From NCBI GenBank assembly GCA_963931495.1, contig OZ007020.1, positions 60,001 to 92,000 on the forward strand: 32,000 nt of DNA. Reading direction: 5' to 3'. The notes beneath the pieces were generated by a model. The model saw only the letters and a list, made by a program, of their open reading frames with translations. It ran no database searches and had not been told where the DNA came from. The position numbers and the translations under genes are program-made. Shown one piece after another: positions 26,016 through 29,000 of this stretch (the stretch's first letter is position 1; every line of letters begins with the position of its first letter). This DNA comes from an uncultured Alphaproteobacteria bacterium. GTDB lineage: Bacteria; Pseudomonadota; Alphaproteobacteria; Rs-D84.

Positions 26016-29000
26016 GATAAAAAGTCAATGGTTCAATTAGTACGGTTCGGCTGAACCCCTCACAGGGCTTACACCCACCGCCTATCAATGTCCTGGTCTA
26101 GAACTGAACTCATGGGGATATCTTATCTTGTGACCAGCTTCCCGCTTAGATGCTTTCAGCGGTTATCTGTTCCGAACATAGCTACCCTGCAGTGCCGCTG
26201 GCGCGACAACAGGTACACCAGAGGTTCGTTCGACCCGGTCCTCTCGTACTAAGGTCAAGTTCACTCAAATATCCAACGCCCACAGTAGATAGGGACCTAA
26301 CTGTCTCACGACGTTATTAACCCAACTCACGTACCGCTTTAAATGGCGAACAGCCATACCCTTGGGACCTGCTCCAGCCCCAGGATGCGATGAGTCGACA
26401 TCGAGGTGCCAAACACTACCGTCGCTATGGACGCTTGGGTAGCATCAGCCTGTTATCCCTAGAGTAGCTTTTATCCGTGTGCGATGGCCCTTCCATGCGG
26501 AGCCACCGGGTCACTATGACCGACTTTCGTCTCTGCTCGGGGTGTCCCCCTTGCAGTCAGGCTTGCTTTTGCCATTGCACTCACCGGTTGATTTCCGACC
26601 AACCTGAGCAAACCTTCGCGCGCCTCCGGTACGATTTGGGAGGCGACCACCCCAGTCAAACTGCCCATCACGCACTGTCCCCCGCCCTGGTTCAAGAACG
26701 CGGGTTAGACACTAAAACACACCAGGGTGGTATTTCACTAACCGCTCCATGTGAACCAAAATCCACACTTCAAAGCGTCCCACCTATCCTACGCAAATGA
26801 GTCCTAGTGCCAGTACGAAACTGCAGTAAAGCTTCATAGGGTCTCTCCGTCTAGCTGCGGGTACCCGGCATTTTCACCGAGAATTCAATTTCGCTGAGTC
26901 TATGTTGGAGACAGTGTGGAGATCGTTACGCCATTCATGCGGGTCGGAACTTACCCGACAAGGAATTTCGCTACCTTAGGACCGTTAGAGTTACGGCCGC
27001 CGTTTACTGGGGCTTCACATCAATGCTTGCACACCTCTGCTTAACCTTCCAGCACTGGGCAGGCGTCAGTCCCTATACGTCATCTTATACGATTTAGCAG
27101 AGACCTGGGTTTTAAGTAAACAGTCGCCCCCACCTGGTTTGTGTCACCTGATTAAAGTTGCCTTGAAACAGGTCATCCTTATCCCGAAGTTACGGATGCA
27201 TTTTGCCTAGTTCCTTCAACATAGTTCTCTCAACCGCCTTAGTCTACTCGACTCGAGCACCTGTGTTGGTTCTGGGTACGATCTATACGCGTGGGCTATT
27301 TCCCGGAACTGCTTCACTGCCCGACCAATCCAATAAGGCCGAACAATTTACGCAATTCGTCACTCTCACGCAGGTCACGGAATATTAACCGTGTTCCCAT
27401 CGGCTACGCCTTTCGGCCTGACCTTAGGGGTCGACTCACCCTACCCTGATTAACATTGGATAGGAACCCTTGCTCTTACGGCGTCAAGGTTTCTCACCTT
27501 GATTAGCTGCTACTCATGCCAACATTCGCGCTTCTGATACCTCCACCGTGGCTCGCACCTTCGGCTTCACAGGCTTACAGAATGCTCCGCTACCGCGTGT
27601 CTTACGACACACCCGCAACTTCGGCAGATGATTTTAGCCCCGTTACATTTTCGTTGCCGAAACTCTAATAGACCAGTGAGCTATTACGCTTTCTTTAAAC
27701 GATGGCTGCTTCCAAGCCAACATCCTGGTTGTTTTGGAATCTCGACCCACTTTCCCACTTAATCATCATTTTGGGACCTTAGTTGGCGGTCTGGGCTGTT
27801 GCCCTCTCGTCCACCGACCTTAGCACCGATGGACTGTTTCCCAGGCTATAATTTGTTGGTATTCAGAGTTTGATATGGGTTGGTAAGATTTTACTCCCCC
27901 TAGCCATTTCAGTGCTTTACCCCCAACAACGAACACCTGAGACACTACCTCTATAGTTTTCGCGGAGAACCAGCTATAACGGGGTTCGATTGGCTTTTCA
28001 CCCCTAGACACAGGTCATCGCCCAATGTTGCCATATTGGTGCGTTCGGCCCTCCAGCGATTGTTACACCGCCTTCAGCCTGCCCATACCTAGATCACCCC
28101 GCTTCGGGTCTATTACTGCATACTGTGGCTTGTGAATCAATATTTCTTTTGAAAACAGCGACATAACAATTTGGCAAAGGGGCAAGTGTTTTTGCGCCGC
28201 GTGTATGACATACACGCAAACAAAAACGCGCCGCCAATTTGGCAAATTTTTGTCGCCCACCGGGTGCAATCATAATTACCAATCTGCTTTGAAAAATCCG
28301 TGCGCCGTATTGAATACGCCGCGCATATTTTTCTGCGCATCTTGCCAATTCTTATTGCACTGTTTCTCAAAAAAACATTGATTCACAAGCCCACGCCCTA
28401 TTCAGACTCGGTTTCCCTGCGCTTACACCTAGCGGCTTAGGCTTGCATGCAATAATAACTCGTTGGCTCATTATACAAAAGGTACGCCATCATCGGAAAA
28501 CCGACTCTGACAGCTTGTAGGTATTCAGTTTCAGTGTCTATTTCACTCCCCCTTCGGGGTTCTTTTCACCTTTCCCTCACGGTACTTGTTCACTATCGGT
28601 CAATCAGGAGTATTTAGCCTTGGGGGAAGGTCCCCCCATATTCAAACCGAATTTCACGTGTACGGCTCTACTCTTGAACCAAGAAACTAGCTTTCGCATA
28701 CAGGGCTATCACCTATTATTGCTGTGCTTTCCATCACATTTTGCTAGCTAAAATCTCGGTCACTGGGCTGGTCCCGTTTCGCTCGCCACTACTAAGGGAA
28801 TCGCTGTTGCTTTCTTTTCCTGCGGGTACTGAGATGTTTCACTTCTCCGCGTTTGCCTCTTTGCCCTATGAATTCAGACAAAGATAATCCATTCGGATTG
28901 GGTTTCCCCATTCGGACATTCCGGGGTCAAAGCATATTGACGGCTCACCCGGACTTATCGCAGTCTTTCACGTCCTTCATCGCCTCTGATTGCCAAGGCA

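Follow-up and report, generated by a model that had tools for sequence, protein, structure and literature searches.

Intervening sequences (IVSs) interrupt the 23S rRNA of various bacteria, and the sites named for them in the literature are helices 9, 25 and 45 (PMC4990558). Those that carry no open reading frame typically measure 100-200 nt (PMC8708148). The IVS of Coxiella burnetii has a 28-bp stem and lies in a single-copy 23S gene (PMC4990558), and E. coli ribosomes tolerate IVSs either unprocessed or processed, according to a passage of PMC8708148 that cites Gregory et al. 1996. A second group of extra 23S sequences remains in the mature ribosome. Mycobacterial H31a is a retained insertion at helix 31 (H31), on the solvent side of the ribosome below the central protuberance (PMC3286452, PMC5737476), and ES9 is supersized in Asgard archaea (PMC7594248). 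The same neighborhood has been explored experimentally in E. coli, where a Tn5-derived insertion at positions 638-646 is functional, insertions in H29 and H31 are viable, and insertions are tolerated at 628-646, a stretch that overlaps ES9(L) (PMC2441807).

We describe here a 265-nt insert in the 23S rRNA gene of an uncultured alphaproteobacterium, found within a 32,000-nt stretch of DNA (the window) and analyzed together with the remainder of the genome and with related genomes. The genome is a single contig of 958,618 bp, and matching the 23S gene against the whole of it returned a gene count of one. Genome sizes across the genus and order range from 0.7 to 1.1 Mb. The 23S gene is 3013 nt long, or 2748 nt if the insert is left out, and is bounded by a canonical leader-trailer processing stem (-55.8 kcal/mol, compared to -34.6 +/- 4.7 kcal/mol for shuffled sequences). 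The host lineage is reducing its rRNA, with about 45 model positions deleted from domain I in the Rfam alignment. An intact rnc gene is located next to, and downstream of, lepB, and its 210-aa RNase III product is complete, comprising both the catalytic domain and the dsRBD. The features of the locus are collected in Table 1.

Table 1. Positions in the window of the rRNA operon, the 23S insert and its predicted structural elements
Feature	Position	Strand	Basis and remarks
16S rRNA	29542-31043	minus	rRNA operon, one in the window
tRNA-Ile(GAT)	29334-29410	minus	between 16S and 23S
23S rRNA gene	26016-29028	minus	Rfam RF02541, 2547 bits, model positions 1-2925
Helix 31 hairpin, GUCU-GAAUA-GGGC	28395-28407	minus	intact; block identical in all insert-free congeners; E. 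coli 638-650
Insert, 265 nt, 23S nt 638-902	28127-28391	minus	17 congeners without extra sequence here; MFE; helix list
Basal stem, 5' strand (RNA sense), insert nt 1-32	28360-28391	minus	predicted to pair with insert nt 234-265
Arm A, insert nt 32-128	28264-28360	minus	MFE helices; inverted repeat I1, 48-nt arms, 73% complementary
Arm B, insert nt 136-234	28158-28256	minus	MFE helices; holds the 19-nt hairpin 28199-28217
Basal stem, 3' strand (RNA sense), insert nt 234-265	28127-28158	minus	apparently deleted in part in variants P0005, P0006 and P0017
Helix 27, 3' strand, GUAUGCAGUAAU	28112-28123	minus	3' of the ACA linker; Rfam pairing with upstream UUAUUGCAUGC; conserved in congeners
5S rRNA	25806-25920	minus	rRNA operon

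The junctions of the insert were fixed by the Rfam alignment together with 17 insert-free congeners. They read GGGCG-UG-[265 nt]-ACA-GUAUGCAG, where GGGCG closes H31 on its 3' side (647-651 in E. coli, numbered as in PMC2441807) and GUAUGCAG is the 3' strand of helix 27 (H27). All 17 congeners have ...GAGUCUGAAUAGGGCG followed by 5-7 variable nucleotides and GUAUGCAGUAAUAGACCCGAAG at this site, and the insert replaces this variable linker, with UG + 265 nt + ACA here as against 5-7 nt in the congeners. A reading of the locus made from its letters alone (the sequence-only reading) had proposed that the two flanking blocks are only a few nucleotides apart in E. coli, in good agreement with this spacing. 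The order from 5' to 3' is the helix 31 hairpin, the UG linker and the insert. We assign the insertion site to the single-stranded linker that leads from H31 to the 3' strand of H27. With GUCUUAACU corresponding to E. coli 638-646, in H31 (PMC2441807), this is at about E. coli 652-655.

In the Rfam covariance alignment, 269 nt are inserted around model positions 687-690. Taken alone, the cmscan alignment opens the gap inside the H31 loop, an arrangement that we rejected: the aligner had borrowed AAGCC from the end of the insert to serve as the 3' side of H31. The insert-free congeners carry the same H31 block, which shows that H31 is complete and that the insert follows it on the 3' side. The covariance alignment and the congeners thus put the site in the linker from H31 towards H27, in domain II and outside helices 9, 25 and 45, close to the position of about 650 at which the sequence-only reading had arrived by counting. 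That reading had also called the location unusual. This holds in the sense that we found no 23S IVS at H31/H27 in the open literature searched, but the surroundings of H31 are a known insertion-tolerant surface. In the 50S subunit, the site faces the solvent.

The two ends of the insert, GGCTTGTGAATCAAT (28127-28141) and ATTGATTCACAAGCC (28377-28391), are exact reverse complements over 15 bp, as first noticed from the sequence, and a longer comparison stretches these arms to about 50 nt, with 85% identity. Across 20 mononucleotide shuffles of the window, not one 15-bp inverted repeat turned up within 300 nt, compared to two 15-mer pairs in the real window. As RNA, the basal stem is predicted to comprise 23 continuous pairs, a 2-nt internal loop and 7 further pairs (G.U pairs included), with an energy of -38.6 kcal/mol. 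The folding energy of the insert with 7-nt flanks is -119.9 kcal/mol, as compared to -78 +/- 5 kcal/mol for shuffled sequences (z = -8.1). The predicted fold is Y-shaped, with the basal stem bearing two long hairpin arms and 212 of the 265 bases (80%) in pairs. Arm A is a long irregular hairpin with the apex CGUAU-UCA-AUACG. Arm B encloses both copies of a 12-nt direct repeat that the sequence-only reading had located at 28167 and 28235 (28167-28178 and 28235-28246). The repeated motif, AAUUUGCCAAAUU, is a quasi-palindrome, so that its copies, one on each strand of arm B, are predicted to pair with each other; the direct repeat would thus be explained by the fold. The recurring GCGCCG motifs remarked on earlier were counted at three occurrences, and the hairpin previously given as 28200-28218 is indeed present, with its start corrected by one nucleotide to 28199. 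The GC content of the insert is 42.6% compared to 50.5% in the rest of the 23S gene, and resembles that of the host genome rather than rRNA.

An rRNA-sense ORF had been noted as filling almost the entire insert. The listed ORFs exist, but the idea that they code for protein does not survive closer analysis. Neither the 77-aa rRNA-sense frame nor a 46-aa plus-strand ORF spanning the 5' junction has a homologue, and five ORFs searched against Pfam gave nothing above threshold, with a single sub-threshold DUF match. None of them has the S23p four-helix-bundle domain (PF05635) that characterizes ORF-bearing IVSs. A further candidate, an 84-aa frame, was rejected as a protein: its relatives are frameshifted copies of the same DNA, and HMMER, run in full against 1.84 billion representatives, returned nothing besides variants of the insert. 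Indels of 1-2 nt and premature stops move these variants among all three frames. Because the variant frames are broken and the Pfam and homology searches are empty, we reject a coding role and conclude that the insert is non-coding and contains no conserved reading frame.

The same spurious 84-codon frame, which gene callers have translated through the insert, served as a query and recovered 6 clusters containing 17 distinct natural variants. These come from at least 35 contigs in Logan, ENA and NCBI assemblies, reaching 249 kb in length. Several of the variants continue past the 3' end of the insert into flanking 23S sequence (...SQATVCSNRPEAG), indicating that they are located at the same 23S site. 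Changes in the variants were deduced from translated ORFs mapped back onto the DNA and then onto the fold, a procedure that detects a difference only if it alters an amino acid in one of the arbitrary frames. The common substitutions mostly leave base pairs of the predicted structure in place: G93A converts a U.G pair to U-A, T240C converts G.U to G-C, and C71T converts C-G to U.G. G149A breaks the G149-C219 pair, which C219T restores as A-U in variants P0010 and P0011; the commonest variant has A149.C219, a mismatch without compensation. The 1-2-nt indels are located in arm A, either in its apical loop or at its G.G mismatch, and the changes at positions 132, 212, 218 and 225 fall on unpaired bases. 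T65A, G68A and T96C break pairs, each in one variant only. Variants P0005, P0006 and P0017 appear to have lost 16, 7 and about 22 nt, respectively, from the 3' strand of the basal stem. Taken together, these amino-acid-changing differences in arbitrary frames provide moderate evidence that the fold of the insert is under selection.

The insert is narrowly distributed. Each of the 17 other species of the genus that have this stretch of 23S assembled lacks it; the nearest of them (G052) has a 23S that is 99.1% identical over 1.7 kb. A search for further copies in its own genome found the insert only once. No homologue of the insert DNA was detected in 256 other species representatives of the genus, in 327 further genomes of the order (a set that takes in the genus) or in 400 other genomes of the class. 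Phage and plasmid collections likewise contained no match, and an exact 26-mer from the invariant core of the insert had none in JGI metagenome contigs or GTDB representative genomes. In a class-wide sample of about 194 other species with this 23S stretch, no split at the H31-H27 site was seen among those listed or inspected, and at least 8 of the sampled species are interrupted at H25, about 100 nt upstream, where the inserts measure 67-517 nt. This sample takes in one genome flagged as unpublished (G367), which contributes a single unsplit entry and on which no claim rests. A 24-nt match that recurs in congeners is located within the rsmI coding sequence (FAKLAAHF) and does not extend, so the match was treated as chance.

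The insert shows several features of an IVS. It is extra rrl sequence that, relative to close homologues, stands in place of a short linker; its complementary termini form a long duplex (15 bp perfect; 23+7 bp as a stem); and its occurrence is sporadic, being absent from 17 of 17 species and present on at least 35 public contigs. Because the near-perfect duplex of ~30 bp, the sporadic occurrence and the single-copy rrl are all features of classical IVSs, we favor, with modest confidence, the interpretation that the sole 23S gene harbors a young, lineage-specific and non-coding IVS, whose excision by RNase III yields a two-piece 23S. The earlier suggestion that the long stem is an RNase III substrate is plausible given the complete enzyme encoded in the genome. 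From this standpoint, the host would be a genome-reduced gut alphaproteobacterium that has recently gained the insert in its only rrl. The insert would be carried in the pre-23S transcript, where the host RNase III would cut the basal duplex in the manner of the classical IVSs known from Salmonella, Coxiella and Alphaproteobacteria, and the arms of the excised insert would then be degraded. Since the insert occupies 23S nt 638-902, the mature 23S would consist of two pieces, about 0.64 and 2.1 kb long, that stay associated within the subunit.

Some observations are more difficult to reconcile with excision. The site differs from the known IVS helices and is a linker instead of a hairpin tip, and mycobacterial H31a, which is kept in the mature ribosome, sets a precedent for retention at H31. 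In addition, the commonest variant has the uncompensated A149.C219 mismatch, and the stem deletions in P0005, P0006 and P0017 would, if real and uncompensated, remove the proposed cleavage site. Such alleles would imply either that processing is non-essential or that those variants are retained.

Retention of the insert more generally is the main rival explanation, possible though less probable. Here the 265 nt would stay in the mature 23S as a Y-shaped surface domain, that is, an expansion segment at the ES9/H31a site, where the mycobacterial and Asgard examples and the tolerance of the E. coli ribosome all offer support. The variants add to this in two ways: they seem to lose part of the basal stem and keep the remainder, hinting that cleavage may be dispensable, and pairing-preserving substitutions are found all through the arms, beyond the basal stem. 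However, expansion segments are normally common to the members of a clade, whereas 17 congeners do without this one, including the species with the 99.1% identical 23S. A near-perfect duplex of ~30 bp in a cell that has RNase III would also be expected to be cleaved, and growth of the 23S would run against the reduction of rRNA in the host lineage that is evident in domain I. If retention were nevertheless true, the insert would far exceed in size any expansion segment known from bacterial 23S. It would be a recent gain by a host that is otherwise shedding rRNA and genes, and a far larger bacterial counterpart of eukaryotic and Asgard ES9 and mycobacterial H31a.

We regard it as improbable that the insert is mobile or selfish DNA that landed in rrl, either as a MITE-like element with terminal inverted repeats of ~50 nt or as a degenerate self-splicing intron whose exons are ligated (GGGCGUG to ACAGUAUG). 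Inverted repeats of that length and 85% identity are present, the GC content is host-like rather than rRNA-like, and the distribution is patchy. Nevertheless, an insert that occurs once in its own genome, and nowhere in the 327 others of the order or in the phage and plasmid collections, is not what one would expect of a mobile element, and the flanks, GGGCGTG and ACAGTAT, show no target-site duplication of the kind associated with MITEs. With respect to an intron, an Rfam search at E up to 10 identified no intron or other family, only chance microRNA and lncRNA matches, and the termini of the insert pair with each other, whereas the ends of group I or II introns pair with their exons. Finally, an assembly or sequencing artefact of one genome, as might be suspected from the lack of the insert in every other species representative with the region assembled, is exceedingly improbable because the 17 variants recur in independent assemblies (Logan, ENA and NCBI; at least 35 contigs), several continuing across the 3' junction into the 23S flank, and the insert is thus real in nature.

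Within the open literature searched, the H31-H27 linker is a new IVS site; the element is of a known kind, but its sequence is unrelated to those described. Bacterial 23S IVSs map almost exclusively to helices 9, 25 and 45, and the insert, a well-supported case, adds another place at which the continuity or compactness of 23S may be dispensable. The presence there of ES9 in eukaryotes and Asgard archaea and of H31a in mycobacteria suggests that tolerant sites may host either IVSs that are cut out or expansion segments that are kept. Since the insert is in the sole rrl of a genome of <1 Mb, every ribosome must cope with it. The natural variants, including the stem-deletion alleles, constitute a ready series for testing RNase III requirements, and the insert is a specific marker for the host lineage in gut metagenomes.

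How the insert relates to the described systems can be summarized by comparison with each in turn. It is like the ORF-bearing IVSs (S23p/PF05635) of Leptospira and Coxiella in its size of a few hundred nucleotides, its long terminal stem and its location in 23S, but differs from them in having no match to PF05635 or any other Pfam family and no conserved frame. Relative to ORF-less IVSs, it is longer, at 265 nt, than the typical 100-200 nt, and its excision is putative. With mycobacterial H31a and eukaryotic and archaeal ES9(L) it shares the domain II neighborhood of H31, solvent exposure and tolerance by the ribosome. Those elements are retained and conserved over whole clades, and bacterial H31a is much shorter, whereas the insert is limited to one narrow lineage and has a basal duplex of the RNase III type.

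The closest resemblance is to the RNase III-processed IVSs in H25 and H45 of Salmonella, H45 of Coxiella burnetii and H9 of Alphaproteobacteria. The insert is set apart from these by its position at the H31-H27 linker, which is a junction strand and not the tip of a hairpin, and by a sequence with no similarity to anything in the genomes searched. Several other features correspond. Both the insert and these IVSs replace a few nucleotides of 23S with a stem-loop, and both have a long near-perfect terminal duplex (23+7 bp in the insert, 28 bp in Coxiella). Both are sporadic among close relatives, in hosts that possess RNase III, and, as in Coxiella, the rrl gene that carries the insert is present in a single copy.

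The 265-nt insert has a GC content of 42.6%, like the genome background, and the remaining 23S sequence one of 50.5%. One segment of 24 nt within the insert, UUUGCCAAAUUGGCGGCGCGUUUU, is 92-96% identical to rsmI coding sequence in four congeners, a match that is probably due to chance, since in none of the four does the similarity extend past these 24 nt.

As deduced from their translated ORFs, three natural alleles of the insert (P0005, P0006 and P0017, on ENA contigs 1.6-2.7 kb long) have deletions of 7-22 nt in the basal stem, on its 3' strand. It may be that the stem has truly decayed or been remodelled in these alleles, or that the deletions are chimeras of short-read assembly.

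Without the insert, the 23S rRNA is only 2748 nt long, compared with the 2925 positions of the Rfam model (RF02541), and alignment to this model shows that about 45 positions of domain I (about 273-318), together with several shorter stretches, are missing from the gene. By this alignment, the host has a reduced rRNA as well as a reduced genome. The leader and trailer of the gene are predicted to form a long processing stem that includes a 13-bp perfect duplex (CUCUUCAAGCAUA/UAUGCUUGAAGAG) and has a folding energy of -55.8 kcal/mol, against -34.6 +/- 4.7 in shuffles. On this folding prediction, the stem is likely a canonical RNase III site.

Features and compared loci (coordinates in the window unless a locus is named)
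Feature	Position	Locus (genome)
Insert	28127-28391	
Basal stem, 3' strand	28127-28158	
23S gene (minus strand)	26016-29028	
Domain I deletion	about 28760-28765	
23S leader	29029-29200	
23S trailer	25915-26030	
rsmI match	1501-1524	L035
rsmI matches		L041; L042; L045
H25 inserts		L055 (G414); L067 (G572); L064 (G589); L063 (G669); L058 (G605); L057 (G463); L054 (G647); L066 (G522)

In at least eight further species of Alphaproteobacteria, the canonical H25 position, ~100 nt upstream of the site occupied here, is interrupted by an insert (67-517 nt); the one of 517 nt, in G414, could accommodate an ORF.
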